Positions 6,100 to 56,513 of a stretch of 64,000 bases of DNA are shown here, one piece after another. Made by a program: the position numbers and the translations under genes. The notes beneath the pieces are model-generated. The model was not told where the DNA came from, made no database searches, and saw only the letters and a program-made list of their open reading frames with translations. How positions within the stretch are numbered: the first letter of the stretch is position 1; every line of letters begins with the position of its first letter. The stretch is from the NCBI GenBank assembly GCA_963697895.1, contig OY969100.1, positions 1,472,001-1,536,000 of the forward strand. The letters run 5' to 3'. The stretch is from an uncultured Methanomicrobiales archaeon (GTDB taxonomy: Archaea; Halobacteriota; Methanomicrobia; Methanomicrobiales; Methanospirillaceae).

Positions 6100-6358
6100 T
6101 TTTTCCGGCACGCTTCAAAGCGGTGCGGCTATCCATCATTCGCTGGACTCACCGATCTTTTTTCGTCTCATATTTAACTAATAAATGAATATGCCGACTG
6201 CAGTCCATATCGGACTGAATAGAATCGCATACTGACGGGGTTATGCGAGCAAGAGGCTGCATGAAGCGATCTCGAAATCAGTTCAGAACAACGGGGCTGC
6301 TTGAAATTATAATTTTACAAATAGAGAGGGAAAGTTTTCCGGTTTCCCCTCATTTCAA

Positions 6359-6432
6359 TGCCTCAGCCCGGATTTGAACCGGGGACAACCAGATCTTCAG
6401 TCTGGCGCTCTCCCAAACTGAGCTACTAAGGC
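6359..6432 (-). tRNA. tRNA-Phe (GAA)
   Basis: Reverse complement GCCTTAGTAGCTCAGTTTGGGAGAGCGCCAGACTGAAGATCTGGTTGTCCCCGGTTCAAATCCGGGCTGAGGCA folds as a cloverleaf with GAA anticodon. Confidence 0.97.
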
Positions 6433-6523
6433 AGGATACCAGTATAGGATTTTTAGCATAATAAATGATCTGGTTTTGAAAAGAAAGCCCATATTTTTAT
6501 GCTCCGCGGTGGATTCTTTGAGG

Positions 6524-20100: not shown

Positions 20101-21348
20101 GCGGGTTGTCGTATTGATCTGCACCACCCGGTTCGGGGTGGCCGGGTCCTGGATCCAGCTTGCCTGGAGGGTCTCGTTCAACTGGTAAGAATACAACGGC
20201 AGGTTCCCAAAGAAGTAAGACCCGTTGCTCGCCGTTTTGCAGGTCAGGAAGATCCCGTTCGTCTGGTTGGTCAGGGTAATCTGCCAGCCACCGAGCCCGG
20301 TTCCGGTCGCATTCCTTTTATACCCGCTGATATTCCCGAGGATTATCTGAGAGTTGGTGAAGTTCTGGTTGAACAGGCGGGGAGTGGTGGCATTGATCTG
20401 CACCGTCCGGTTCGCGCTGACCTGGGTCCAGCCGGCTTCGAGAGTCTCGTTCAGCCAGTAGGTCCCATACGGAACTCCGGTAATATTGTAATATCCGGCA
20501 CCGAAACCCGTCTGTGTGTGGGTTACATTGAAATAGACCGGTGTCAGGGTCGTAGTATTCCGCAGCGTGATGTTCCATCCATTCAACCGGTTGTTGTCCG
20601 AGTCGATCTTATACCCGCTCACACTGCCTGTCGGTGTAGCCGCTTCACGAAGCGCAATGAGGTTAGCGACCCAATCCGCATCAGGAACAGCAACACCGTT
20701 GAAAGAGGTTCTGGATCCGGTATTCCCCCCTGAAGTCCAGTTCTCCCTTGCCGCAGCACAGGATGGACCATCACCGTCAGTGTGCTCGAATACGTAATTC
20801 CAGGTCATATTGGAAGGAACGTTGAAGTCGTCTTCCTGATCATCGAAGCCGAAGCATGCAACAAGCAGGGAGCCGGCGGGAACAACATTGATCCCCAATG
20901 CAGTCAGATCATCGCCGTTCCCCGAATTACTGCTGGAACCAAAGATTGGAGATGTCGTATTGACACCCGTATAACGCATGATGCCCCCGACTGCCCTGGC
21001 TCCATTACCTCCATAGTTGAGCGTCCAGGTGTACGAATTTGTTCCGGTCGCTGTAACGACCTTATAATAAATAGCCTCTCCAATATCGTCACCGTTATTT
21101 GTTCGATTTATGAGGTGCCATGTACCGTCGGGAGCTGTTACGGTATCATCAGAACCACCATTAAATACAATATGAGCAAGGAGGAGGTCATCTGTTTGAG
21201 CAAGGATATTTGTGAAGGTAAGAGAAGTCGTGGTCGTCAGGTTGTTCGTTGAAGAAGCATACCCTATCGCAGCAGCTGCGGGAACACTAAACAGACAAAG
21301 GGCGAGAACCAGCCCTAGAATGATGGCTATCCATTTGTTACAAAGCAT
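14151..21348 (-). CDS. Giant secreted adhesin (~2400 aa): signal peptide, N-terminal beta domain, vWA domain, about 19 CnaB/SdrD-B-like repeats, C-terminal PKD; frameshift at ~18678 splits it into ORFs 18547..21348 and 14151..18638
   Basis: vWA MIDAS AIDSSGS...LLTDG; repeats GYK...GWNITL...GYYQFCGL.PG.YNLSE...NFTN. Removing base 18678 restores SGFKLDCNSSGLSGWQINLTNST, continuous with the repeat pattern. Confidence 0.88.
14970..16570 (-). repeat. Intragenic tandem repeat, about 6 x 264 bp
   Basis: GATACACATCAGCTGG recurs every 264 nt (about 14973, 15237, 15501, 15765, 16029, 16293, 16557). Confidence 0.92.
16830..18440 (-). repeat. Intragenic tandem repeat, about 6 x 267 bp
   Basis: Near-identical units encoding C(V/I)DGYKLDCNG...EELG(L/P)QNFTNTKFL with 267-nt periodicity. 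Confidence 0.92.
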
Positions 21349-21501: not shown

Positions 21502-22446
21502 TTGAAAAGGGTTTTATTAGCCGTATTTATTCTAATCGCGTTCTTTATCGGACCAGCACTGGCCGACATCGCTCCTGGGGATGGTCCCGAAACCCAGGGG
21601 ATCGTCAGTACAACTGTGATATCGTGCCTGGGAACTGTCACGAAGGATGACCAGATCTCCTGGCGGGCAAGCAATGAATATCTGGATGCCAATTTTGATC
21701 TTTATCTGAATCTTCCAGGAGAACCGTATTACGATCCGGATCTTCCGTTGGGAGCCCAGATATGGATCGAATCAGGTGAGCCTCCCATGAAATTCCCCGG
21801 CGAGATCCAGATGGTGAGCGCGTATTCCGAAATGACAGAAGCGAAGAACGGGCTCACCGAGTATTCCAAGAGTCTGCAGGTGGACACCGCCGGGAAGGTT
21901 CTCGGCCAGAATAATGTCCAGACCCACCGGAATGTTCAGTTTGAGGCAAATCCCGAGATGGATGGCCGGATCACTTCCTCGGAAGAGCATACGATCGATC
22001 TCGCCGGATGGAATACCATGAAAGCGACATCGACGCTCTGTCCGCTTGCGCAGCCTTTCGAGATCCCCACGTGCTGGCCTCCGTTCTGCAGTATCGAGCG
22101 GGTGGGAAGCGATATCGACATGACCACGGTTTCGCTGGTCACCGAAGCTTCGTCCAGAACGATCTCCCCGGGTGATAATTTCCAGGACACGCCGATACCG
22201 GGTATTGCTGATGTACCGGTCAACCTGCACTATAATATTGCCGTAACGGGACTATCTCCTGTGACATATGCCGAAGGAAATGTCGTAGCCTATATGGATG
22301 TCCATTCCCAGGATGGCACATCTGACTGTTCTTTACCGAATGTCGGATCGGAAGTTGTTTATAACGAAAAAACGGCTGCAGACGGTATTATTGGCGCATT
22401 TACCAAGACGATGGATTATACATCCGGCGTCCTGCGACCGTTCTGA
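21502..22446 (+). CDS. Secreted sheath-protein-like (MspA-like) paralog, divergent
   Basis: Signal peptide then PETQGI, EAKNG.TEYSK, DT.GKVLG..N.QTHR, LCP...PPFC, AYMDVHSQ, YNEKT.A.G.I..F.K.M.Y.SG, all shared with the 34-42 kb paralogs; GGAGG RBS before TTG. Confidence 0.8.
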   Translation: MKRVLLAVFILIAFFIGPALADIAPGDGPETQGIVSTTVISCLGTVTKDDQISWRASNEYLDANFDLYLNLPGEPYYDPDLPLGAQIWIESGEPPMKFPGEIQMVSAYSEMTEAKNGLTEYSKSLQVDTAGKVLGQNNVQTHRNVQFEANPEMDGRITSSEEHTIDLAGWNTMKATSTLCPLAQPFEIPTCWPPFCSIERVGSDIDMTTVSLVTEASSRTISPGDNFQDTPIPGIADVPVNLHYNIAVTGLSPVTYAEGNVVAYMDVHSQDGTSDCSLPNVGSEVVYNEKTAADGIIGAFTKTMDYTSGVLRPF

Positions 22447-22590
22447 TCCCTATCTTTTTTTAAGAATCACAAGAATCGTATCAATCATCTATTGTAGGAA
22501 TTAATCTCTTGCAGAGTTATCGAATTCTATTCAGGCTGGAAGAGTTCCTTAAAAGGGGCGTTTATGATATGTTCTGAAAAAATAAGTAAA

Positions 22591-22663
22591 CGCCCAGGTC
22601 GGAATTCGAATCCGAGTCGTCTGCGTGACAGGCAGACATGATGGGCCGCTACACTACCTGGGC
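22591..22663 (-). tRNA. tRNA-Asp (GTC)
   Basis: Reverse complement GCCCAGGTAGTGTAGCGGCCCATCATGTCTGCCTGTCACGCAGACGACTCGGATTCGAATTCCGACCTGGGCG. Confidence 0.96.
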
Positions 22664-22683
22664 ACCGGTATTCCTGCAAGTTA

Positions 22684-33118: not shown

Positions 33119-33460
33119 ATGATGCCGGGTGGAATAAACCCAAAAAAGATGAAACAGATGATGAAACAGTTGGGGATGCAGGTCGAACCGATCGAAGATG
33201 TCCGGCAGATCGTGATCACGACGGGAAAAGGGAGATATATATTCGACGAAGCAGAAGTGACCGCTATGACGATGCAAGGTGTGAAGACCTTCCAGATCGC
33301 CGGACAGCCACGGTTCGAGGAGGGAGACCTTGAAATACCTGACGATGACGTCAGAATAGTTATGGAACAGACTTGCACAACAGAAGATATAGCACGAACA
33401 GCACTTATTGAAGTAAAAGGAGACCTTGCAGCAGCAATTCTCCGGCTCTCCCAGCCATGA
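33119..33460 (+). CDS. nac: Nascent polypeptide-associated complex protein
   Basis: NPKKMKQMMKQLG, C-terminal UBA GDLAAAIL. Confidence 0.95.
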   Translation: MMPGGINPKKMKQMMKQLGMQVEPIEDVRQIVITTGKGRYIFDEAEVTAMTMQGVKTFQIAGQPRFEEGDLEIPDDDVRIVMEQTCTTEDIARTALIEVKGDLAAAILRLSQP

Positions 33461-34182
33461 TCGGACAGGGTGATCGGGTTTTACTGGTTGGGAACGGCAG
33501 AAAATATTTTGTCCGGGCTGGGAACGGAAACCTTTCGACAGACCTGGGGATCGTCGACCTTGGGCTCCTTATCGGTGCATCGCCCGGTGACCAGATCGTA
33601 TCCCATATCGGCACTACATTCGTCATCCGGATCCCGAGATCTGCCGATTTTTTTGAACATGCCCGGCGAAGCGGTGCTCCCATGCTCCCCAAAGATATAG
33701 GGCTTGTTATCGGATATACCGGTATGAATCACCGGGATGCAGTCCTCGATGCGGGGACCGGCAGCGGAATCGCTGCGATCTACTTTGGCGGAATCGCTTC
33801 GACGGTCAGGACGTATGAACATCGGCCCGATTTCGCCCGGCTTGCGGTTTCCAATATCCAGGATGCGGGGCTGGATAATGTGGAAGTGATCGACCGGGAT
33901 TTCCTCGAGGCAAAAGGGAATTTCGATGTGGTGCATCTCGATATGACCATCACCCCGGCACACGTCGAACATGCCCATACGCTCCTTAATCCGGGGGGGT
34001 ATCTCGCGTGTTATACCCCCTTCCTTGAACACCTTTTCACCGTTCTGGACACCGCTCAGGGACTATTTGACGAGGTGAACGCTCATGAATGCATTGAACG
34101 GGAAATGACCCGGTCGCTGCGGGGTACCAGGCCTTCGACCCGGATCTGCCATTCCGGTTATATCAGCATTGCGCGGAAATGA
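33457..34182 (+). CDS. trmI: tRNA (adenine-57/58-N1)-methyltransferase
   Basis: PMLPKDIG, VLDAGTGSG, YTPF, RGTRP...HSGY. Confidence 0.88.
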   Translation: MIGQGDRVLLVGNGRKYFVRAGNGNLSTDLGIVDLGLLIGASPGDQIVSHIGTTFVIRIPRSADFFEHARRSGAPMLPKDIGLVIGYTGMNHRDAVLDAGTGSGIAAIYFGGIASTVRTYEHRPDFARLAVSNIQDAGLDNVEVIDRDFLEAKGNFDVVHLDMTITPAHVEHAHTLLNPGGYLACYTPFLEHLFTVLDTAQGLFDEVNAHECIEREMTRSLRGTRPSTRICHSGYISIARK

Positions 34183-34380
34183 TTGCAATCAAGCTTGAAA
34201 ATAAGTCTAACGAATAATGGCGGTTTAATTTAATCTTTCCCGGTTTTTAGAATGCGCTCTCGAAGAGGTGTGAACCAGTTCGTTTGAATTGCCTGACATG
34301 GGCTGTGAACGGTTATATCGGTAATTCAGTCTTTGTTTGTCATCCCGTTCCAGCAGATTTTGGATTAATTTGTTGGCAGA

Positions 34381-34418
34381 TTTAACCTTCCGGTTAACCC
34401 ATTGATTTAACCGGTTAA
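34381..34418. promoter_or_regulatory. Putative operator (TTAACC-N4-GGTTAA plus TTAACCGGTTAA) upstream of sheath-like gene A
   Basis: Palindromic; 30/38 identical to 35796..35833 at the same distance from the TATA box. Confidence 0.6.
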
Positions 34419-34513
34419 GGTCATATTAATGGCCGATTTTCTATTTAGCCCCCATAGATTGCCGAATTAAGAAGGAAGATTTATATATTATTCCAGCGAA
34501 CTGGATCGATGAT

Positions 34514-34529
34514 GCTGAAGAGTATCAGC
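34514..34529 (+). promoter_or_regulatory. Conserved GCTGA-N6-TCAGC element near the inferred transcription start (also 35928, 37076 degenerate, 38332, 41982, 21466)
   Basis: Lies 28-34 nt after TATA-like boxes in six paralog promoters. Confidence 0.7.
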
Positions 34530-34551
34530 ATAAAATGTAGGAGAAACCAAG

Positions 34552-35406
34552 ATGAAGACAAAATTTGTCGTTTTGGCACTCGTTGTTATGGCCCTCTTTG
34601 TCGGAGTTGTCATGGCAGCACAGCCGCCAAGCGCAACCTTTGAAACTCAGGGTGTCAAGACATCTGAGTCTATTTCCGTGCTGAAAGGCTCGGTTTCGAG
34701 CTCAGAGTCGATGGTCATGACGGTTGCTAACAACCCTGATGGTCTCAATGCACCGCCACTCGGGAACAGCGCGGATGGCCTCGGCGAACGTCAGGCAGTG
34801 AACGTCTATACCGAGACGACCGACGCAAAGAACGGTCAGAACATCGAGTATTCGAAGACCTTTGCCGCTGATACCGGAAACAAGGTTCTCGGTACCTGGA
34901 ACACCCAGGCACACCGCTCCATCCAGTACGAGACCGACCCAACCAAGGACGGCCGTATGACCTCTGCGGAACAGATCGTCATGGATGTTGCAGGCAACTA
35001 CGGTAACAGTGCAAGTGAGTTCCTCTGTCCGTTTGCAGAGGGCAAGTCCAACTACTCGCCGGCATTCTGTAACATCGTCCAGATGGGCAGCAACCTCGAT
35101 GCAACCTATGCAAACGTCGTCACTGACGCAGCAAAGAGGGACATCCAGGGAGTTGCAGACTTCCCGATTGAAGCCCAGTACTCGATCAGCGCAAAGGGAG
35201 TGCTCGTCGACACTGCGAATGGATTGGTTGCACAGCCGTACACCGGCTCGGTAAGCGCATTCATGAACGTACACACTCAGGAAGCTCGCGGTAACAACGA
35301 CGTACCCGAGGCCGACTTCGTCTACAAGGAGACAACCTCGGCAAGCGGGTTCATCAACAGCTTCGCAAAGAGCATGTACTATCAGGACGGCGCACTGAGG
35401 ATCTAA
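34552..35406 (+). CDS. Secreted sheath-protein-like (MspA-like) paralog A, 284 aa
   Basis: Signal peptide, FETQG, LCPF..PAFCN, C-terminal YQDG; Ser/Thr/Asn-rich beta-strand pattern; strong codon bias, TATA, AGGAG RBS and terminator. Confidence 0.85.
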   Translation: MKTKFVVLALVVMALFVGVVMAAQPPSATFETQGVKTSESISVLKGSVSSSESMVMTVANNPDGLNAPPLGNSADGLGERQAVNVYTETTDAKNGQNIEYSKTFAADTGNKVLGTWNTQAHRSIQYETDPTKDGRMTSAEQIVMDVAGNYGNSASEFLCPFAEGKSNYSPAFCNIVQMGSNLDATYANVVTDAAKRDIQGVADFPIEAQYSISAKGVLVDTANGLVAQPYTGSVSAFMNVHTQEARGNNDVPEADFVYKETTSASGFINSFAKSMYYQDGALRI

Positions 35407-35795
35407 GTTCGCAGGTAGTTAACTGGGAAAATGGGGGAATAATCCTCCTTTTTCTTTTTTAATGAGTTTGTTCAATTGAAGGTCTTGTTATTATTATCAA
35501 ACGCCTTTCATGTCGATGCAATCTTCTTTGGAAAAGAGTATGGTTTGATGAATTGGATTCATCATATCGATTAATAATACGGAACCGCTTCATCCCCGAT
35601 CTCTCGGAGGATAAAGACCATTCAAATATGTGCACATTCATCTCAGTGATACCAATCCGAGAACTTAATCTCAAGAATGTTAGGAGATTCCATTTCATGG
35701 ACCGCCGTGCAGGGAAATATCCTCTCTGAATGCCAGTGGATTCAAAGCCCGTTCCTGTTAGGGATAGCTGTTTTCAAAAGAATCTAAATGATTGG

Positions 35796-35833
35796 TTTAA
35801 CCGTCCGGTTAGATCATTGATTCTTTCGGTTAA
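35796..35833. promoter_or_regulatory. Putative operator upstream of sheath-like gene B
   Basis: TTTAACCGTCCGGTTAGATCATTGATTCTTTCGGTTAA, homologous to 34381..34418. Confidence 0.6.
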
Positions 35834-35960
35834 ACGATTAAATTGTTTATTTACGCAAATGAGCCATTTAATGAGCCTGATTTGTGAGGAAAGTTTATAC
35901 CATATTCTCGCGAATAGGATCAGTGATGCTGAGGAGTATCAGCATACGGAGATTACTAAA

Positions 35961-36815
35961 ATGAAGGCAAGTTACATCTGCTTGGCCCTTCTGCTGATGG
36001 CACTCTTTGTTGGAGTTGTCATGGCTGCAGATCCGCCAAGCGCAACCTTTGAAACTCAGGGAATCAAGTCAACCGATTCCATATCCGTGCTGAAGGGTTC
36101 GGTATCGACCTCTAAGACGATGGTCATGACCGTCGCGAACAACCCCGACGGCATCAATGCAGCGCCGCTCGAGTCGAGCGAGGACGGCCCCGGAGAACGC
36201 CAGTCCACAAACGTCTACACCGAGACAACTGACGCAAAGAACGGCCAGAACATCGAGTATTCCGCAACGGTAACCGCCGACACCGGTAACAAGGTCCTCG
36301 GTACCTATAACACCCAGGCACACCGCTCGATCCAGTACGAGACCGACCCGACAAAGGACGGCCGTATGACCTCTGCCGAGCAGATCGTCATGGATGTTGC
36401 AGGCAACTTTGGCAACAGCGCAAGCAACTTCCTCTGTCCGTTTGCAGAGGGCAAGTCCAACTACACGCCGGCATTCTGTAACATCGTCCAGATGGGCAGC
36501 AGCCTTGATGCGACCTATGCAAATGTCGTCACCGATGCAGCAAAGAGAGATATCCAGGCGACGGCCGACTTCCCGTTAGAGGCATCATACTCAATTGCGG
36601 CGAAGGGCGTGCTCGTTGACACGGCAGATGGATTAGTTGCACAGCCATACACCGGCTCGATCAACGCATACATGAACGTCCACACGCAGGAAGCTCGCGG
36701 CAACAACGACGTGCCCGAGGCCGACTTTGTATACAAGGAGTCGACTTCAGCAAGCGGGTACATCAACAACTTCGCCAAGAGCATGTACTACCAGGACGGC
36801 GCCCTGAGAATCTGA
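35961..36815 (+). CDS. Secreted sheath-protein-like paralog B, 284 aa
   Basis: Start MKASYICL at 35961 gives the same 855-bp length as A; collinear with A. Confidence 0.85.
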   Translation: MKASYICLALLLMALFVGVVMAADPPSATFETQGIKSTDSISVLKGSVSTSKTMVMTVANNPDGINAAPLESSEDGPGERQSTNVYTETTDAKNGQNIEYSATVTADTGNKVLGTYNTQAHRSIQYETDPTKDGRMTSAEQIVMDVAGNFGNSASNFLCPFAEGKSNYTPAFCNIVQMGSSLDATYANVVTDAAKRDIQATADFPLEASYSIAAKGVLVDTADGLVAQPYTGSINAYMNVHTQEARGNNDVPEADFVYKESTSASGYINNFAKSMYYQDGALRI

Positions 36816-36837
36816 ACGCAAGGTTAGAAAATTCAAC

Positions 36838-36870
36838 GCGGAAGGATCAACCTTCCCGCATATTTTTTTT
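36838..36870 (+). terminator. Hairpin plus T-tract terminator after paralog B
   Basis: GCGGAAGG-ATCAA-CCTTCCCGC followed by ATATTTTTTTTT; similar hairpin/T-tracts follow A, B' and A'. Confidence 0.7.
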
Positions 36871-37111
36871 TAATTTATTTTGATTTCCTTACTAACTCGC
36901 AATCAATTTTTATCGGATTATAGACAACGAAACAGCAATTTCTCTAAAAATTGATGGTTAATTCAACAAATGCCGATGGAAAGAAATACATTTTAAAGAT
37001 TAGATTCAAAATAAAATCAGGCGAATTGAAAATTAAGAAAGTATATAAGCCCTTATAACGAACAAAACTAGTGATGCTTTAGAGTATCAGATAAAATGTA
37101 GGAGGAACAAA

Positions 37112-37966
37112 ATGAAGATGAAATTTATCGTTCTGGCACTTCTGCTGATGGCACTCTTTGTGGGAGTTGTCGTGGCTGCAGATCCGCCAAGCGCGACCTT
37201 TGAAACACAGGGAATCAAGTCAACTGAGTCTATATCCGTGCTGAAAGGTTCGGTATCGACCTCTAAGACGATGGTCATGACCGTCGCGAACAACCCCGAC
37301 GGCATCAATGCACCGCCGCTCGAGTCGAGCGAGGACGGCCCCGGAGAACGCCAGTCCACAAACGTCTATACCGAGGCAACTGACGCAAAGAACGGCCAGA
37401 ACATCGAGTATTCCTCAACGGTAACCGCCGACACCGGTAACAAGGTTCTCGGTACCTATAATACCCAGGCACACCGGTCGATCCAGTACGAGACCGACCC
37501 GACAAAGGACGGCCGTATGACCTCTTCCGAACAGATCGTCATGGATGTTGCAGGCAACTTTGGCAACAGCGCAAGCAACTTCCTCTGTCCGTTTGCAGAG
37601 GGCAAGTCTGACTACACCCCGGCATTCTGCAACATCGTTCAGATGGGCAGCAGCATGGACGTTACCTATGTCAATGTCGTCACCGATGCGGCAAAGAGAG
37701 ACATTCAGGCAACCGCAGACTTCCCGCTCGAGGCATCGTACTCCATTGCGGCGAAGGGCTTACTGGTCGATACACCAGATGGATTAGTTGCCATGCCGGC
37801 GGTTGGCTCGATCAATGCATACATGAACGTCCACACGCAGGAAGCTCGCGGCAATAACGACGTGCCCGAGGCCGACTTCGTCTACAAGGAGTCGACTTCA
37901 GCAAGCGGATACATCAACAACTTCGCCAAGAGCATGTACTACCAGGACGGCGCTATAAGGATCTAA
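37112..37966 (+). CDS. Secreted sheath-protein-like paralog B', 284 aa
   Basis: Collinear with A and B; AGGAGG RBS. Confidence 0.85.
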   Translation: MKMKFIVLALLLMALFVGVVVAADPPSATFETQGIKSTESISVLKGSVSTSKTMVMTVANNPDGINAPPLESSEDGPGERQSTNVYTEATDAKNGQNIEYSSTVTADTGNKVLGTYNTQAHRSIQYETDPTKDGRMTSSEQIVMDVAGNFGNSASNFLCPFAEGKSDYTPAFCNIVQMGSSMDVTYVNVVTDAAKRDIQATADFPLEASYSIAAKGLLVDTPDGLVAMPAVGSINAYMNVHTQEARGNNDVPEADFVYKESTSASGYINNFAKSMYYQDGAIRI

Positions 37967-38370
37967 ATCGGGTTTACACCCATCTGAATGGGGTAATTCC
38001 CTCATTTTTATTTTTTCACAATCCCGATTGTGGATCTTTCCTACTAAGGCATGGGGATTCTTTTCTGGTAATTAATCAAAATGAGTATAAATTCCAAAAA
38101 ACCTATCGAAAGAGAAGATCTGATTGATTTCAACTACTCATGAGAGCGCGTGCGGGGCTCACTTCGATATCTATTGGAAAGAAGATGCGGGAATCAGGAT
38201 CCACTCTTAACACATATCCTCCAATTGTCCGTGAGAACGTTTCTAAGCCGAATAAACAAGATAAAAGCCCTGTACATTGTAAGATTTAAGAGAGAAAGTT
38301 TATAAGATCCTGTAACAAAAGGTTGGATGGTGCTGAAGAGTATCAGCATAAGAATGCAGGAGAAACCAAG

Positions 38371-39225
38371 ATGAAAACAAAATTTGTCGTTCTGGCACTC
38401 GTTGTTATGGCCCTCTTTGTCGGAGTTGTCATGGCAGCACAGCCGCCAAGCGCAACCTTTGAAACTCAGGGTGTCAAGACATCTGAGTCCATTTCCGTGC
38501 TGAAAGGCTCGGTTTCGAGCTCTGAGTCGATGGTCATGACGGTTGCTAACAACCCTGATGGTCTCAATGCACCGCCACTCGGGAACAGCGCGGATGGCCT
38601 CGGCGAACGCCAGGCAGTGAACGTCTATACCGAGACGACCGACGCAAAGAACGGTCAGAACATCGAGTATTCGAAGACCTTTGCCGCTGATACCGGAAAC
38701 AAGGTTCTCGGTACCTGGAACACCCAGGCACACCGCTCCATCCAGTACGAGACCGACCCAACCAAGGACGGCCGTATGACCTCTGCGGAACAGATCGTCA
38801 TGGATGTTGCAGGCAACTACGGTAACAGTGCAAGTGAGTTCCTCTGTCCGTTTGCAGAGGGCAAGTCCAACTACTCGCCGGCATTCTGTAACATCGTCCA
38901 GATGGGCAGCAACCTCGATGCGACCTATGCAAACGTCGTCACTGACGCGGCAAAGAGGGACATCCAGGGAGTTGCAGACTTCCCGATTGAGGCACAGTAC
39001 TCGATCAGCGCAAAGGGTGTTCTCGTCGACACTGCGGACGGATTGGTTGCACAGCCGTACACCGGATCGGTAAGCGCATTCATGAACGTACACACTCAGG
39101 AAGCTCGCGGTAACAACGACGTACCCGAGGCCGACTTCGTCTACAAGGAGACAACCTCGGCAAGCGGGTACATCAACAGCTTCGCAAAGAGCATGTACTA
39201 TCAGGACGGCGCACTGAGGATCTAG
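38371..39225 (+). CDS. Secreted sheath-protein-like paralog A', 284 aa
   Basis: Differs from A at two residues by my comparison (TANG/TADG, SGFIN/SGYIN). Confidence 0.85.
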   Translation: MKTKFVVLALVVMALFVGVVMAAQPPSATFETQGVKTSESISVLKGSVSSSESMVMTVANNPDGLNAPPLGNSADGLGERQAVNVYTETTDAKNGQNIEYSKTFAADTGNKVLGTWNTQAHRSIQYETDPTKDGRMTSAEQIVMDVAGNYGNSASEFLCPFAEGKSNYSPAFCNIVQMGSNLDATYANVVTDAAKRDIQGVADFPIEAQYSISAKGVLVDTADGLVAQPYTGSVSAFMNVHTQEARGNNDVPEADFVYKETTSASGYINSFAKSMYYQDGALRI

Positions 39226-40073
39226 ACACTGGAAACAAGAAGTGTGGGTTAAACCCATACTAATTTTATTTTTATAAGGTTTTTATTTTATTAATTCAGG
39301 AAATGGTCTTTTCTGAATGCATCAAGAGAACAGAAGTCTGCCCGTTTCCTTTATCTTATCAGGCAAAATCGAAAATTTTAATTTTATCCACCGCAGGACA
39401 ACATCCGACTCACCATCGGGTGCAAATGAAAGGCCTGCGTTCAGTTCCTGGTGATATCCGCGATATTCTACCGCTTACCGAAAGACCCCGGTCACCCATT
39501 AATAATCTATCGGCCGGTGGAAGGTGCTTGGATTATTTTCTCAAATATGATTCTGTCGAAAGCTCTTATGGTATGAGTCTCGTATGTGGGCTAGTTTTTA
39601 CGCTCGGGTTTGAAACCCGTTATCTTTCCGGTGAAGATACGATATGACCATGATACAGTCAGCTGGATTTGTGCCTGAAATCATTAATGCCTTTATTCAA
39701 TTTGATCTGGAAATCTCCTCCCGTGTCTTGTTCAGAATTAAATGCCTATTTCTTGCCTGCATTTCCACCAAACAAGGTGAGTTCCTGGGGGACTAATAAA
39801 TAGGGTTAAGAGTAAATAAAAATCAACATTTCTTCTTAATGTTGAATTATTTACCCACGGCATACCGAATTGTTCTTGTTATTGAAGTTTTTCGCCGGAG
39901 AAATCCTAATCCGGAAATGATAATTAAAGAGTTTCGTTGATAATCGATATTGATATCCGATATAAGCATTCAAGTTGAAGGATGATGTGTTCTTTGGATT
40001 TCTAGGCGAGTAATTATAAAAGGTTAGATCCCTGTGTAAACATTCAGAAAAAAAGAAGAATATAGGTTTCAGC

Positions 40074-40868
40074 CTACTCGTCCGTCTCGTAAGTCATACT
40101 CTTCTGGAGTTGGAAGAGACCGCTGACACTGGTCGTATCTTCGAACTGGGTGTCTGCACCGAGTGCGGTCGCATTTCCTCGTCCGGTCATCTCATGTACC
40201 TTGATATACGCAGAAGCAGTTCCTTCTGCATCAGATCCGGTACCATTCAGTCCCTGAGCATTGACATCGTAGTGGACACTTACGTCGTTATCCACATCGG
40301 ATACCGATGTTGTCGTTGCATGGCTGAGTGCAGATACCTTCGTCACATCCAGATTGCTTCCGGACTGTACCATCGTATTTTCTGCCGGTAACGTGGTGTT
40401 GTCCTGGTTCGGGAACGGGCAGCATGTCGTTGTATTCTCCGCAGCTGTGGATGCTTCGAAGAAGGTCACTTCTTCCTGGGAGGACATCCGGCCATTTGTA
40501 TCCGCCTCAAAGGTGAGCAATCGTGTTGAATCCAGATTATTTCCTCCCGGCACCTGGTTCGCGTCATTATACGCGAAGTGCTTTGCATATGTCGTATTCC
40601 CTTTGATCGCCATCGTGTTCTCTGAGTACGCTGTCGTCTGGAATACTTCTCCGGCTACCAAAGGAGGGTTGTTCTGCATATCTTCGTTGTCCAGCTGAGA
40701 TGCCAGGGTAGAATGCGCTCCAAAGTTCCCATCGCACGTAGCAAAGGTGTCAACAGTCAGACCGGATGTCTCGTTCGCCGCAGATAGGGTCCTGACTGCA
40801 AGAGCAGACCCGGAAAAGAGACCCAATATCATCAAAATGATGATAATCAGTAGTAAGGATACTCGCAT
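40074..40868 (-). CDS. Secreted sheath-protein-like paralog, divergent (264 aa)
   Basis: Signal peptide, NETSG, NPPL..GE, AYSENT, DANQV.G.NNL, GRMSS.E, CCPF, QSGSNLDV, AYIKVH, SVSG...LQKSMTY. Confidence 0.8.
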   Translation of the reverse strand: MRVSLLLIIIILMILGLFSGSALAVRTLSAANETSGLTVDTFATCDGNFGAHSTLASQLDNEDMQNNPPLVAGEVFQTTAYSENTMAIKGNTTYAKHFAYNDANQVPGGNNLDSTRLLTFEADTNGRMSSQEEVTFFEASTAAENTTTCCPFPNQDNTTLPAENTMVQSGSNLDVTKVSALSHATTTSVSDVDNDVSVHYDVNAQGLNGTGSDAEGTASAYIKVHEMTGRGNATALGADTQFEDTTSVSGLFQLQKSMTYETDE

Positions 40869-41114
40869 GTTCAGTTCGCCACCTTGATTGGAAATTATTT
40901 AATTCCACTTTGAAATTACGTTTATTGTATATATAAATATTGTCCTCTCAAGATTTTCCGAGAGAGCATTCACAGGGTAAGTGTCCAAATCCCTCCAAAA
41001 TAAGGCGATTTCCTGTTTTGTATTCGTTTACGATAAATATTCTAAAATGGTCTTCTTCAATTCGCTATAAAAAAGTAGGAGGGATATTCCCACCCTGTTC
41101 TTCACCAGTTCACT

Positions 41115-41963
41115 TCAGACCCTGATTGGCCCGTCTTGGTAGGACAAATCCTTGTCGAAGTTGTTGATCGAACCGCTTGCTATGGTGTCCTCTTTATACA
41201 CGAAGTCTCCTTCAGGCACATCATTGTTACCCCGGGCCTCCTGGGTATGAACATCCATGAAGGCTTCAATGGTTCCCGTTGCCGGGACAAGGATTAACCC
41301 GTCAGGTGTATTGATGACTGTTCCTTTGGCATGGATGCTGTAAGCAAGCTGTGCAGGGAAGTCAGCTGTAGCCTGGATATCACGGAGGGTTGCGTCGGTT
41401 ACGACGTTGATGTTCGTTACATCGATGTTGCTCCCTGCCTGGACTATGTTACAGAATGCCGGGGCATCAGCGCTCGCTCCGGAAGCGAACGGACAGAGCA
41501 TCGAATCTGCGGTTGATCCTCCGGGTGCTCCAACCATATCCATGATGATCTTCTCGCTAGAGGTCATCCTGCCATTCTTCGTCGGATCTGCGATGAATTG
41601 GATGCTTCGGTGAGAATTCACATTATTGGTCCCGAGAACTTGGTTCGCATTGTCTGCGGTGAATGTCTTCGAGTAATCGGTGAGCCCGTTCTTGGCTTCT
41701 GTGAATTCGGTATAGACATTCGTCGCCTGCCTTCCTCCACTGGAAAGTGGTGCACTATTTACGCCGCCTGAATTCTGCGCCGTTGTCATGACCATGGTGA
41801 CCGAATTGGTGAATGTCCCGGATACCGATACCGACGTGACCGATCTGATTCCCTGGGTCTCGAAGGTCGCACTGGGTTCCAATGCGGCCATGACTGAACT
41901 GCAGGCCATTATGCAGAGCGCCACTCCAATCAGCATTAAATAAACTAATTTGTTATTCTTCAT
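41115..41963 (-). CDS. Secreted sheath-protein-like paralog (282 aa)
   Basis: SATFETQG, LCPF..APAFCNIVQAGS, HTQEARGNNDVPE, YQDG; start MKNNKL after AGGAGG. Confidence 0.85.
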   Translation of the reverse strand: MKNNKLVYLMLIGVALCIMACSSVMAALEPSATFETQGIRSVTSVSVSGTFTNSVTMVMTTAQNSGGVNSAPLSSGGRQATNVYTEFTEAKNGLTDYSKTFTADNANQVLGTNNVNSHRSIQFIADPTKNGRMTSSEKIIMDMVGAPGGSTADSMLCPFASGASADAPAFCNIVQAGSNIDVTNINVVTDATLRDIQATADFPAQLAYSIHAKGTVINTPDGLILVPATGTIEAFMDVHTQEARGNNDVPEGDFVYKEDTIASGSINNFDKDLSYQDGPIRV

Positions 41964-42331
41964 CCATCCTCCTACAATATAGCTGATTATTTTCAGCACT
42001 TACTGTTTTGTTATGATCTTTTAAATAGCTTCTTTCCGGGTTTATCACGCGAAGGAGACGATATCCTGCGGTTCAATGAATAAACCCCGCGGGTACATAC
42101 ATTCAAATAAAATGGTTTTTTGCAGAATTAGATACATCATAACTCAAGAACTGCCAATTCCATTTCAGCTGCACCGTAAACTATTCTGTTCCAAGCAGTA
42201 ATTTATGGAAGTAATAGAGCCATCGAATATTGAAACTATGGAGATAAGAGCAAATTTATCATTAATTTTTAGAATTTATGGGTATTATTGTTCTAAAACA
42301 GAGCCCGGAAAAAAATATTCCCGGTCGAATT

Positions 42332-42733
42332 TTAACCGGTATAGGATGTGCTGAAGTAGAAATTATTGATGATCCCGCTTGCACTGGTGTACTGGTTATA
42401 GGTAAACTCTCCACCCGGGCCTATACTGTGCGAGTTGGAATATGCTGAAATATCGCCGATGGTGGGAATCTCGCCTAGTGGCTGGGCACTTATCGTATAT
42501 CCAAGCATTGGTGCCGATGGATACGATAAGGGCGCAGAAACACCGCTAAAGAGACTGAGTCCATTCGTGTCAGATACGAGAGATATCCCACTGACATCTA
42601 TATAGCTTCCAGACATTTGCATCTGACTGGCCAACGGCAGCCCGTCGGATAATTGTGCAGAAACGGTGCCGGTAAGGCCGATAATGATCGCCACCGCCAG
42701 CAACGATATTCCTATCAACGTTTTTTTCATCAT
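42332..42733 (-). CDS. Half-size secreted paralog matching the C-terminal half of the sheath-like proteins
   Basis: Signal peptide then GSYIDV...VSD, LGYTISA, G.ISAY, FTY...TSASG.INNF...SY.G. Confidence 0.7.
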   Translation of the reverse strand: MMKKTLIGISLLAVAIIIGLTGTVSAQLSDGLPLASQMQMSGSYIDVSGISLVSDTNGLSLFSGVSAPLSYPSAPMLGYTISAQPLGEIPTIGDISAYSNSHSIGPGGEFTYNQYTSASGIINNFYFSTSYTG

Positions 42734-43070
42734 GATTCTCACTCTATTCTGTGTTTAATGTTAATCATCGTTCGTGTTCGATGAATAAATACCTTCTCCT
42801 GATCCTTTTATCGATGCTATTCCGCCCGATATACAATATAACCCCGTATAGTTCACTTAATGAAACAACAATTTCTATGGATGGACCCGAACTGTAGCTG
42901 AATGAACCGGAGGGATAAATATTCATGAAATTTCATGCCCCGTGAAATATCATTATCCTGGCCCCTGCACCGGATATACGGGTTTTTAGAGAGCGGAAAT
43001 GGTAGATTCAGGTCTCTGACCAATGGCATTTTACTCATCTTTATCATAGATAGCAGAAAATGTTATACCC

Positions 43071-45047
43071 ATGAAATGGTTCCGGGCTGGAATTATGTGC
43101 CTGATAATCGGGGGTATCCTTATTTCTGGTTGTATTACGGATCAGGCGCCTGCCGTAAACAATAGCAGCAGCACAGAGACCCGGAACGCAACGCTCGCTA
43201 CGGCAATTCAGAAATACGATACTATTTTACAATCAGATCCGGGAAATGTCTCCATCCTGATGGAGAAAGGAAGTGCATTAACAGAACTTAATCGCTATGA
43301 TGATGCCCTTGCCGTGTATGATCGCGTCATCGCGCTGTACCCTAACCAATCGTTTGCATGGGGATATCGGGGGAATGTGCTTTTCAGCACCGGCAGATAC
43401 GAGGATGCACTGGACTCGTACGATCGCTCCCTGTATATCGATCCCGGTATGGCAGCAACCTGGGGATATCGGGGAAAATCCCTTGCCCGTTTGGGGAGAT
43501 ATGATGAGGCAATTCAGGCATATGATCATGCACTTGGCATTGACCCCAATCTCTCTGCCGCGTGGGAGTTAAGAGGAGATGCATTATCCAGTTTGGGGAG
43601 ATACCAGGAGGCTCTTGCATCCTATGACCATGCTCTGCAGATTTCACCAGATCGTATATCTACCATGGAAGCGAAGGCCTATCTTCTGGAAAAACTGGGC
43701 CGGTATGAAGCATCCGTCCAGACATATGATCAGGCATTGAACGTTTCCCCCAACGATACGGTATTGCTGAAAGATAAAGCATATTTGTTAAATCTGATGG
43801 GAAGGTACGAAGATGCTATAAGCACCTATGATCGTGTTCTGGAACGCGAACCGCGTGACACGGTCGCAATGACATACAGGGGATATGCACTCAACAATCT
43901 GGGAAGATATAATGAATCGATTGCCCAATTCGATATTGCGCTGGGAATAAACGAAAATAACAGCCTTGCCTGGTCGAACAAGGGATTTGCCCTGAACGCA
44001 TTGGGACAGCGACAGGAGGCACTCGATGCATACGACCGGGCACTCGCGGTGGACCCTGGCCTTCCAATCGCATGGGTTAATAAGGGATATACATTAAGCG
44101 AACTGGGCCGAAATGAAGATGCGTTATCGGCCTATGACCGGGCTATCGCAATCGATCCAAACAATACGTTTGCCCTGGTCTATAAAGGGGGCACCCTTTA
44201 CCAGCTCAATCGTTACCCCGAGGCCATAGATGCTATTGATATGGCACTTGCTCTTGACCCGAATAACAGTCTCGCCTGGTCAACAAAAGGGAATGCCCTC
44301 ACCCGCCTGGGAAAATACCCAGAAGCGGCAGCTGCATTTGATCGAGCTATTGCAATTGAGCCAAATTCCTCAACGCTCTGGTTCAACAAGGGGTACGCAC
44401 TTCAGGCGGCGAAACAATGGAAGAATGCCCTTGATGCGTACGATCGGTCCCTTGCACTTGATCCTGAAAACAGCAATACCTGGACATACAAAGTGGCAGT
44501 TCTCCACGAGTTGGGTCGTGACTTAGAGGCGGTCCATCAATATGACAGGGAAATACAGCTCCATCCAAACAACACCGTCGCCTTGATGAATAAAGGGTAT
44601 GCGCTTTTCACAACCCACGAGTATGATGATGCCATCCGGTTGTACGACCGTGCAATCGCTATTGAACCGAATAATATCATTGCATGGGTCAATAAGGGAA
44701 CTATCCAGATACAGGTGGGGGATTATATTGGTGCGATCGATACGTTTAACCAGGCAATGCTGGTGAGTCCGAATGATGAAAACGTTCACCTTTATAAAGG
44801 GATTGCGCTCGCCAGGATGGGCAGTTATGCGGAGGCAGTGGACGAGTTCGATGCGGTCATTAAGATAAATTCACAGAACACCGCTGCATGGACAAATAAA
44901 GGGTATTCACTAGTGAAAACGGGTAACGTGGTCGAAGGGATCCAAGCGTATGACACTGCTCTGAAGATTGACCCCAGCTATACCGCAGCACAGCAGGGAA
45001 GACTCCAGGCAATTCAGGTTAACTGGCCGGGATACCGGAAAGGATGA
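43071..45047 (+). CDS. Tetratricopeptide-repeat lipoprotein (about 17 TPRs)
   Basis: Lipobox ILISGC; 34-aa repeats AW.NKG.AL..LGRY.EA..AYDRAL.IDP. Confidence 0.92.
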   Translation: MKWFRAGIMCLIIGGILISGCITDQAPAVNNSSSTETRNATLATAIQKYDTILQSDPGNVSILMEKGSALTELNRYDDALAVYDRVIALYPNQSFAWGYRGNVLFSTGRYEDALDSYDRSLYIDPGMAATWGYRGKSLARLGRYDEAIQAYDHALGIDPNLSAAWELRGDALSSLGRYQEALASYDHALQISPDRISTMEAKAYLLEKLGRYEASVQTYDQALNVSPNDTVLLKDKAYLLNLMGRYEDAISTYDRVLEREPRDTVAMTYRGYALNNLGRYNESIAQFDIALGINENNSLAWSNKGFALNALGQRQEALDAYDRALAVDPGLPIAWVNKGYTLSELGRNEDALSAYDRAIAIDPNNTFALVYKGGTLYQLNRYPEAIDAIDMALALDPNNSLAWSTKGNALTRLGKYPEAAAAFDRAIAIEPNSSTLWFNKGYALQAAKQWKNALDAYDRSLALDPENSNTWTYKVAVLHELGRDLEAVHQYDREIQLHPNNTVALMNKGYALFTTHEYDDAIRLYDRAIAIEPNNIIAWVNKGTIQIQVGDYIGAIDTFNQAMLVSPNDENVHLYKGIALARMGSYAEAVDEFDAVIKINSQNTAAWTNKGYSLVKTGNVVEGIQAYDTALKIDPSYTAAQQGRLQAIQVNWPGYRKG

Positions 45048-45116: not shown

Positions 45117-45998
45117 TTACATCTGGTGGCTTGAAACCTGCCATCGATGGACATATCCCCTTTTTTCCATCACCTGATCATCCAGCCACACGCCGTGCTC
45201 TCGTACAACCTTCCCGATCACCGTAAAAGGAATATCGATATCCGGTAATCGTGCCGGTGAACAGGTAAACAGGAGCTCGAAGTCTCCTCCGCTGTAGAGC
45301 GCCAGGTCACGCCCGACTTCAGAAGGCATACCCGCAGGAATAGGTATCAGATCGGATCTAACCGAATAACCGCAGGTATTCGCATCAAGCATATCATACA
45401 GGGAGAGAGAGAGTCCGTCACTGATATCCATCATTGAGCTGATCCCGGAAATGGCAAGCTTTCGCCCCTCCGCTACCCGTGGTTGGGGTTCGAACAATTG
45501 AAGATCGTACTGATGATACCCGGACAATGCTGCCCCTGCGCATCCAAGGGTTCCGGATATGCATATAACGTCCCCGATACACGAACCGGACCTTCTCACG
45601 ATGATTTCTCGATCGACGGTCCCAATTCCCGTGCTCACAATGGTCAGTTCCTCATGATTATCCAGATCCCCCCCTGCCAGCTCAACGCCAAATCGCGAAC
45701 AACAATCGGATGCCCCCGACATAATGTCGAAGAGTCGGTCCGGCCGGTCAAGACCAATTGAAATGAGCATGAACCAAGGAAAGGCACCCATACTCGCGAT
45801 GTCTGAAAGGCTCACTGCCGCACTCATCCAGCCGATCTGCCAGTCACTCATCTGGGCTGGAAAATCGGTCTCGGTGTGGAGCATGTCGGTTGTGGCAACG
45901 AGAAACTTGTCACCGAGCGGCATAACCGCACAGTCGTCAAGAGTATATTCCCGTCCGATAACTTCACGGACTACGTTCAGGAGTTCACGTTCATCCAA
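45117..45998 (-). CDS. thiL: Thiamine-phosphate kinase
   Basis: DDCA, TTDML, SDIASMGA, GGD, MDISDGL, GGDFELLFT. Confidence 0.95.
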   Translation of the reverse strand: MDERELLNVVREVIGREYTLDDCAVMPLGDKFLVATTDMLHTETDFPAQMSDWQIGWMSAAVSLSDIASMGAFPWFMLISIGLDRPDRLFDIMSGASDCCSRFGVELAGGDLDNHEELTIVSTGIGTVDREIIVRRSGSCIGDVICISGTLGCAGAALSGYHQYDLQLFEPQPRVAEGRKLAISGISSMMDISDGLSLSLYDMLDANTCGYSVRSDLIPIPAGMPSEVGRDLALYSGGDFELLFTCSPARLPDIDIPFTVIGKVVREHGVWLDDQVMEKRGYVHRWQVSSHQM

Positions 45999-56401: not shown

Positions 56402-56513
56402 TGCTGCGGACGGGATCCGAACCCGCGACCTCCAGATATCTCAGATGATGGCGCCTCGATGATACACGAAAACCCTATGAGTCTGGCGCCCTAACCAGCT
56501 AGGCCACCGCAGC
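56402..56513 (-). tRNA. tRNA-Met (CAT, probably elongator) with a 38-nt intron (56438..56475)
   Basis: GCTGCGG acceptor; anticodon arm CCAGA-CTCATA[intron]A-TCTGG; T arm GCGGGTTCGGATCCCGT. Confidence 0.93.

Follow-up and report, generated by a model that had tools for sequence, protein, structure and literature searches.

The genes at the locus

The DNA described here is a window of 64,000 nucleotides from the genome of an uncultured Methanomicrobiales archaeon (contig OY969100.1, positions 1,472,001 to 1,536,000), and our subject is a set of eight paralogous genes in it, for predicted secreted proteins that we place in the archaeal sheath (SH) family. Proteins of this family are the building blocks of the sheath, an amyloid-like tube around the chains of cells in Methanospirillum and Methanolinea. 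Seven of the paralogs sit within 8.2 kb (34552-42733, in window coordinates, as are all positions below). Four of these, which we call A (34552-35406), B (35961-36815), B' (37112-37966) and A' (38371-39225), run head to tail on the plus strand; each is 855 nt long and encodes 284 amino acids, A being a putative major subunit and A' its near-copy. Converging on them from the minus strand are C (40074-40868; 264 amino acids, a divergent type), D (41115-41963; 282 amino acids) and the half-size E (42332-42733; 133 amino acids from the first ATG, with a GTG at 42742). The eighth gene, F, is an outlying paralog on the plus strand (21502-22446; 314 amino acids) with longer inserts and five cysteines. 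An initial annotation, made by a model from the letters of the DNA, had described eight paralogs at these places, four of them tandem 855-bp genes followed by three convergent ones. All eight open reading frames (ORFs) are there, and their coordinates and strands confirm the arrangement.

The limits of the family within the window are sharp. We built a homolog profile solely from proteins outside the window and searched it against all six-frame, stop-to-stop ORFs of at least 40 amino acids (E ≤10); it matched these eight ORFs and nothing else. The four tandem genes score at about 1e-126 to 4e-129 (A 2e-128, B 1e-126, B' 4e-129), D at 7e-117, F at 4e-75 and C at 2e-50, giving a range of 4e-129 to 2e-50 for the seven long paralogs. 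E follows at 1e-6 and aligns to profile positions 169-271 only, from which we read it as a signal peptide joined to the C-terminal part of the SH core. A word-based search with E found a single homolog, 92% identical. Pairwise protein identity is 99% for A and A', 93% for B and B', and 82-86% between the A and B types. D is 60-63% identical to A and B, and F 39-44% identical to A, B and D; identities are lower still for C (31-33%) and E (28-35%).

Hydropathy analysis gives each of the eight proteins one N-terminal hydrophobic segment and no other; beyond it, no 19-residue window has a mean Kyte-Doolittle value above 1.11. Serine, threonine and asparagine together account for 21-30% of residues. 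The annotation's picture of proteins with a signal peptide, no membrane anchor and a richness in Ser, Thr and Asn thus stands. It had also credited the full-length paralogs with a pair of cysteines, in the motif LCPF...PAFCN or a variant, and this is true of A, B, B', A', D and F; C, although full-length, lacks the second cysteine. In A, B, B', A' and D, the motif has a 14-residue spacing (C-x13-C; C159 and C173 in A). F carries LCPL...PPFCS, with a 16-residue spacing (C-x15-C) and extra cysteines, and C has CCPF...PAEN, its first cysteine site doubled. E is without any cysteine. At the level of sequence, the pair is present in six of the eight paralogs. C stands out in one further respect: it has six N-X-S/T sequons against none or one in the other paralogs. 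As for structure, the Atlas model of one homolog (P0077) has a predicted local distance difference test score of 0.25, which makes it unusable, and its structural neighbours are all below threshold.

Promoters, leaders and terminators

Each of the four tandem genes looks equipped to be transcribed by itself. Aligning their upstream regions reveals a TTTATA box some 65-70 nt before the ATG, then a common leader of about 40 nt with a short hairpin and a GGAG-type ribosome-binding site. For A, this promoter and 5' untranslated region lies at 34473-34551 on the plus strand, with TTTATATA at 34480-34487; the equivalent elements of B, B' and A' are at 35887-35960, 37035-37111 and 38291-38370, also on the plus strand. 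Farther upstream, the similarity of the four regions (repeat family D8) collapses. After A comes a terminator-like hairpin with a T-run (35433-35458, +; hairpin and T-run scan), with equivalents on the same strand after B (~36840-36866), B' (37986-38017) and A' (39241-39271). The whole of 34000-43200 holds 16 terminator-like sites against 8.1 +/- 2.7 in shuffled sequence. The annotation's claim that every tandem gene has its own TATA element, ribosome-binding site and terminator is thus upheld for all four. C, D and E have A/T-rich boxes of their own, as judged by eye, and D and E have their own terminator-like sites.

A leader hairpin motif, GCTGA...TCAGC, recurs in the 5' leaders of A (34511-34531), B (35925-35945), A' (38329-38349) and, on the minus strand, D (~41985-42003), where a related hairpin in the 5' untranslated region is combined with a GGAGG site; in B', the motif is degenerate. 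A 20-nt form of the leader motif has three copies in the window and none in 100 shuffles. No compensatory change was found in seven pairs of the hairpin, so we treat it as conserved sequence whose structure is unproven. It may stabilise the mRNA or influence translation.

Membership of the sheath family

At E ≤1, neither Pfam nor NCBIfam offers a family for any of the paralogs, and the PDB gave one chance-level match with single sequences (E 0.24) and none with profiles. A word-indexed search found 77 relatives, nearly all of them metagenomic 'hypothetical proteins' and one labelled cupredoxin-like. An exhaustive profile search reached 701 cluster representatives at E ≤1e-3, with 239 at E ≤1e-30. 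With a 10-sequence alignment as query, 50 loci were recovered from species-representative genomes, all of them Methanomicrobiales: 47 from metagenome-assembled genomes (MAGs) of Methanoregulaceae or uncultured Methanomicrobiales, and three from Methanospirillum (M. lacunae Ki8-1 and an uncultured Methanospirillum). Identity to A is never above 45% among these 50 loci. The C-x13-C spacing is present in 177 of the 197 family proteins that had been retrieved by that stage. At the M. lacunae Ki8-1 locus (L047, 5955-10801), the ATG of an SH-family gene (9998) overlaps the stop codon of a gene for a 1,348-amino-acid secreted, repeat-rich protein, which suggests that an SH paralog is co-transcribed there with a large surface protein.

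Two lines of evidence connect the window to sheath proteins. The first comes from the family's hidden Markov models (HMMs) in Supplementary Data 2 of Medvedeva et al. 2024 (PMC11576556), the consensus of which we read against protein A. Nodes 149-173 of the 'Methanolinea_sheath' HMM spell e-s-l-i-c-p-F-a-s-s-d-t-e-v-i-P-a-f-c-n-i-v-e-a-G, collinear with the C159-G179 region of A, and nodes 251-272 spell t-t-a-s-G-a-i-t-l-F-s-k-s-m-s-Y-e-S-g-v-s-l, collinear with its C-terminal tail. Over the 47 of 272 nodes covered by this comparison, A and the consensus have in common both cysteines, their spacing of 14, the string P-A-F-C-N-I-V and a tail of the form G..F.K.M.Y..G. The 'Methanospirillum_sheath' HMM has p-a-f-c-n at nodes 162-166. 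The second line is a match of profile to profile. Our profile finds Methanospirillum ORFs in loci L049 and L050 at 1e-55 to 1e-57, and hhalign aligned A9 (26 sequences from the window and Methanoregulaceae) with A10 (23 Methanospirillum sequences) over 271 columns, with a probability of 100% and E 1.1e-38. The initial annotation had put forward a comparison with the M. hungatei major sheath protein as a check; our match to Methanospirillum proteins speaks at the level of the family. On the HMM consensus and the profile match together, we assign all eight genes, as a multi-copy locus, to the Methanomicrobiales branch of the archaeal sheath family (SH/MspA) already described in the literature. 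The annotation's suggestion of an MspA-like family is borne out at the level of sequence; its family is right and its name is ambiguous, since the MspA of Methanothrix (Methanosaeta) is a different protein.

The annotation had named a membrane-anchored S-layer protein as the kind of best match that would count against it. Methanomicrobiales S-layer proteins are marked by DUF3821 or Ig-like domains and by PGF-CTERM or another anchor (PMC11641113). None of the paralogs has a Pfam family at E ≤1 or a C-terminal hydrophobic segment, which leaves them without S-layer domain or anchor of the DUF3821/PGF-CTERM type.

Duplication, selection and codon usage

The ratio of nonsynonymous to synonymous divergence (dN/dS) is 0.04-0.15 in all six pairs among A, B, B' and A', from which we conclude that all four copies are maintained by selection. 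Synonymous divergence (dS) is 0.07 between A and A', 0.30 between B and B', and about 0.7 between A and B. A and A' are 98.1% identical in nucleotides within the gene and only 60% identical in the promoter region (60 nt, 34473-34532 against 38291-38350). Between B and B', nucleotide identity is a mosaic, ranging from 0.79 to 0.99 in 90-nt windows. The nested order A-B-B'-A' is incompatible with a single tandem duplication of a pair, and gene conversion between copies would be its simplest reading.

Codon usage sets the same genes apart. The effective number of codons (ENC) is 39.1 for A' and 39.9 for A, the two lowest values among the 40 window genes tested. B (44.3), B' (47.6), C (48.6), F (53.0), D (57.9) and E (61) follow. 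As a proxy for expression, this bias fits A and A', and after them B and B', as the highly expressed forms.

A conserved neighbourhood beside thiL

Upstream of A lies a gene for an S-adenosylmethionine-dependent methyltransferase (33457-34182, +), and downstream of E, a 658-amino-acid TPR protein, secreted or of lipobox type (43071-45047, +; N-terminus MKWFRAGIMCLIIGGILISGC), is followed by the thiamine-phosphate kinase gene thiL (45117-45998, -). The initial annotation had the cluster flanked by trmI and thiL. Its thiL is secure (TIGR01379, 208.1 bits against a cut-off of 184.15). Its trmI is not, all Pfam and NCBIfam matches of the methyltransferase being below their cut-offs (GCD14, 23.9 bits against 26). 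The cluster does lie between these two flanks, without being the direct neighbour of thiL, for the TPR gene intervenes. Beyond the flanks come genes for SBDS, proteasome alpha, RNase P subunits, L15e, MoaC, YjeF, a RecJ-like protein, a PUA protein and NAC on the upstream side, running up to the methyltransferase, and for DUF460 and RIO proteins on the far side of the TPR gene and thiL.

Two Methanoregulaceae MAGs, L002 and L003, have the same gene order on both sides, with 46-89% protein identity for most annotated genes. Between methyltransferase and thiL, they carry a major-type SH gene (+), a TPR gene (-), a short SH gene of 119 amino acids (+) and a C-type SH gene (+). Their short gene (L002 12651-13010; L003 14374-14733) is 42-44% identical to E. 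C finds its best match in their third SH gene, the C-type, at 36-38% identity. Subtype traits are kept as well, the short type being without cysteine and the C type having one cysteine site and six sequons. The window TPR protein is 39-42% identical to the TPR genes at L002 10484-12379 and L003 12207-14027. Relative to these two genomes, the window has the TPR-E-(D)-C segment inverted and extra copies of the major type; no informative inverted repeats were found at the ends of the inverted segment. Since L002 and L003 carry SH genes at the same place beside thiL, we regard this SH locus as old and conserved, its amplification being specific to the lineage, and the annotation's view that the cluster had been inserted between housekeeping genes falls.

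Half-size forms bearing a signal peptide were found only in L002 and L003 among the 14 short profile matches in the 50 loci; the remaining short matches appear to be pieces of genes that have been split. In MAG loci such as L032, as many as nine profile-matching ORFs stand in tandem, and some of these ORFs, too, are split-gene fragments. The conserved association of major-type, C-type and half-size SH genes with a TPR gene beside thiL is possibly a new element, observed in the window and two closely related MAGs.

Published sheath systems

Christensen et al. in 2018 identified the 377-amino-acid WP_011449234.1 as the M. hungatei sheath protein, with homologs in other Methanospirillum and in Methanolinea tarda, and mentioned M. 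hungatei homologs as short as 111 amino acids (PMC6242892). Wang et al. in 2023 fitted its AlphaFold model, in which a cap and a linker loop accompany two sheets of six strands each, into a tomographic map at 7.9 Å and proposed disulfides between the linker Cys257 and a sheet cysteine of the neighbouring ring; for this sheath, their account gives deposited EMDB maps and no atomic model in the PDB (PMC10593813). Medvedeva et al. in 2024 catalogued 643 SH proteins, among them those of Methanoregulaceae, where Methanolinea has them and Methanoregula does not. They describe SH genes as clustered, with neighbours up to 100% identical, lying beside housekeeping genes and numbering 3-31 per Methanomicrobiales genome (PMC11576556). 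Transcription in M. hungatei is dominated by two SH genes, in a ratio of 100:13, and co-assembly of several isoforms was proposed from transcript ratios in this species and Methanothrix (PMC11576556). One of our recovered loci comes from genome UBA467, for which their Table S1 gives 14 SH proteins (PMC11576556). Publications of 2018-2024 thus already cover the family, its occurrence in Methanoregulaceae and the arrangement of its genes in clusters with recent duplicates. A literature search for more recent studies of Methanolinea sheath proteins yielded nothing beyond Medvedeva 2024.

The window resembles the SH systems of Methanolinea and other Methanoregulaceae most closely. Length is similar (272 HMM nodes against ~261 amino acids for mature A), as are the range of taxa, the multi-copy clusters with near-identical neighbours and the housekeeping neighbourhood. 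Nothing qualitative separates them: the window has its nested A-B-B'-A' order, its TPR-E-D-C inversion relative to the two MAGs and major copies in a clade seen, among the 105 proteins of our tree, only in metagenomes. With M. hungatei, the likeness is homology at family level (E 1e-38 against the Methanospirillum-only profile), a signal peptide, no anchor and reported cysteines at 257 and 271, a 14-residue spacing as for C159 and C173 of A. The differences are larger here. M. hungatei SH has 377 amino acids against 284 for the window's A and B types, and the window proteins are ~22-25% identical to four Methanospirillum relatives. The cap consists of six helices and a sheet in M. hungatei, whereas Medvedeva et al. 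inferred a five-strand sheet for Methanolinea (PMC11576556). Larger relatives carry a long insert where the window proteins have only a short segment. Within protein A, residues ~80-109 and 252-280 are weakly similar (34% over 29 columns), a likeness reminiscent of the 'two imperfect repeats' that M. hungatei MspA is reported to have; a repeat between the N- and C-terminal halves of the protein is not significant by hhalign (probability 4.8%, P 0.008, 29 columns).

Two other systems invite comparison. The MspA of Methanothrix thermophila (ABK14853.1) is, like the M. hungatei protein, called 'major sheath protein' and reported to be amyloid in character, yet is a 60.9-kDa protein 14% identical to it (PMC6242892). 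In the view of Medvedeva et al., its structure is unrelated, and its identification as the main subunit was probably a mistake (PMC11576556). Curli CsgA and Fap are likewise secreted, beta-rich and self-assembling, with minor paralogs encoded alongside, an analogy drawn by Christensen et al. (PMC6242892). They differ in having no sequence relationship to the window proteins in our domain and PDB searches, and SH proteins form closed rings of antiparallel sheets where bacterial amyloids form open fibrils (PMC10593813). Moreover, the Pfam annotation of the window makes no dedicated secretion or nucleator genes of the bacterial amyloid kind evident.

How the genes may build a sheath

The eight genes very probably encode the SH subunits of a tube, here a predicted sheath, around the cell chains of a Methanoregulaceae-type methanogen. 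On the M. hungatei model, SH proteins would be exported by their signal peptide and fold into a two-layered beta core, and beta-sheet augmentation would then link subunits by their edges into rings. Disulfides from the cysteine of the LCPF loop to the cysteine of the PAFCN strand in a subunit of the next ring would tie the rings into hoops. A/A' and B/B' may be independently transcribed, amplified copies of two major isoforms that supply the bulk subunits, with D and F as further isoforms; Medvedeva et al. propose that several isoforms assemble together, which is probably the case here too. C and E would be minor, conserved subunits that serve special roles, such as at the edges of rings or hoops or at ring ends. 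The same disulfide pair is impossible for these two, which makes an edge, a terminus or an adaptor site a candidate position for them. Outside the cell, the TPR lipoprotein may be a helper or accessory factor. Codon bias, dN/dS and the conserved locus all fit this division into amplified major subunits and conserved minor ones.

Several points weigh against this picture. The link to the proven M. hungatei protein runs through family profiles and 72 HMM consensus positions (47 of 272 and 25 of 271 nodes). That protein was not recognised among the 343 proteins we retrieved, none of 365-385 amino acids having Cys257 and Cys271. The disulfide analogy is weakened by the two papers on M. hungatei disagreeing on the cysteine count of MspA/SH, one giving a single cysteine at 271 (PMC6242892) and the other two, including Cys257 (PMC10593813). 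(Positions 257 and 271 together would give the C-x13-C spacing seen across the SH family.) A crude Chou-Fasman profile has no helix of six residues or more and 10 beta segments, and is too weak to serve as evidence of fold. A quick FastTree of 105 proteins puts six of the paralogs (A, A', B, B', D and F) in a metagenome-only clade, apart from the major-type gene of L002 and L003, which leaves positional orthology of the major genes unsupported; C groups with C-type genes of MAGs (support 99), its placement made less certain by long branches. Low ENC values are not confined to SH genes either, being found also in a repetitive adhesin gene (43.0) and the methyltransferase (43.2), and codon bias is a mere proxy for expression.

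A bolder proposal goes one step further and treats the thiL-adjacent locus, with its major, C-type, E-type and TPR genes, as the core sheath-assembly module of this Methanoregulaceae lineage. We think it unlikely, and set it out for what it would imply. The major subunit would form the rings. The C-type, with its single cysteine site and six sequons, would be a subunit of the hoop edge or outer face that makes no second disulfide, and the half-size, cysteine-free E-type, consisting of the C-terminal half of the beta core, would cap, prime or close a growing ring. The exported TPR lipoprotein would serve outside the cell as a chaperone or scaffold. A module of this kind would be new, since Medvedeva et al. 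found no conserved genomic context or assembly factor for SH genes (PMC11576556).

Other readings of the locus

The best-surviving alternative is that the proteins belong to the SH superfamily and are secreted to the surface or matrix but form no sheath in this organism; they might instead make up fibres for adhesion or biofilms, or represent a remnant family. The tube is, after all, predicted here from its genes alone, as it is in several lineages for which Medvedeva et al. infer sheaths, and the absence of the SH family from the close relative Methanoregula means that sheath presence varies within the family (PMC11576556). That the window's major-type genes cluster solely with metagenome proteins points the same way. 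Against this stand four strongly codon-biased copies with their own promoters under purifying selection, a disulfide motif kept in six of the eight paralogs and a conserved locus. All Methanolinea, moreover, are reported to possess SH proteins, and the M. tarda micrographs to which the supplementary legends refer show a sheath (PMC11576556). We judge a non-sheath role to be improbable, and sheath subunits remain our preferred reading.

A viral origin deserves mention because SH-like genes occur in 86% of viral operational taxonomic units of Methanospirillum and Methanolinea (PMC11576556), and viral or proviral SH-like proteins have been proposed to weaken the sheath at egress from sheathed archaea. 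The neighbourhood tells otherwise. Pfam annotation of 51 window ORFs gives housekeeping and surface proteins and no virus-like genes near the cluster; searches with the paralogs gave nothing of note in PHROGs and, by tblastn, no hit among 50,697 phage records; and the locus is syntenic with two MAGs and shows the strongest codon adaptation in the window. We give this origin a very small chance. Smaller still, close to nil, is that of copper-binding cupredoxin-like proteins, a reading that derives from the automatic JGI name ('uncharacterized cupredoxin-like copper-binding protein') of the homolog P0005, 99% identical to B' over 272 tree columns, and is opposed by the lack of any such domain in Pfam or NCBIfam at E ≤1, of any PDB match by sequence or profile, and of any name but 'hypothetical protein' on the other named relatives in the same search.

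Other features of the window

Back to back with SH gene F is a pair of adhesin-like ORFs (14151-21348, -). A 933-amino-acid ORF with vWA and SpaA repeats (18547-21348, -) overlaps by 92 nt a 1,495-amino-acid ORF with SdrD_B, SpaA, CarboxypepD_reg and PKD repeats (14151-18638, -), and the repeat pattern continues in another frame across ~18660-18690. The two look like one gene of ~2,400 amino acids split by a frameshift, whether real or an assembly error. Directly after F lies a tRNA-Asp (22590-22664, -). Elsewhere there are a tRNA-Phe (6358-6433, -), a 112-nt tRNA recognised by Rfam and uncalled by ARAGORN that probably contains an intron (56402-56513, -), and an eL15 ribosomal-protein leader (RF03144; 29161-29209, -) before the L15e gene.

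What the locus means for archaeal sheaths

Few of the protein polymers that cells make are as large or as tough as archaeal sheaths. In annotation, the genes described here get no Pfam or NCBIfam name, and a close homolog carries the wrong label, cupredoxin-like, in one source. The locus adds little to the known range of the SH family. What it offers is a compact, well-resolved example, in which two amplified major isoforms stand together with three divergent types. Its C-type gene, half-size E-type gene and secreted TPR protein, which keep their place in related genomes, are candidates for functions in the assembly or termination of the sheath.

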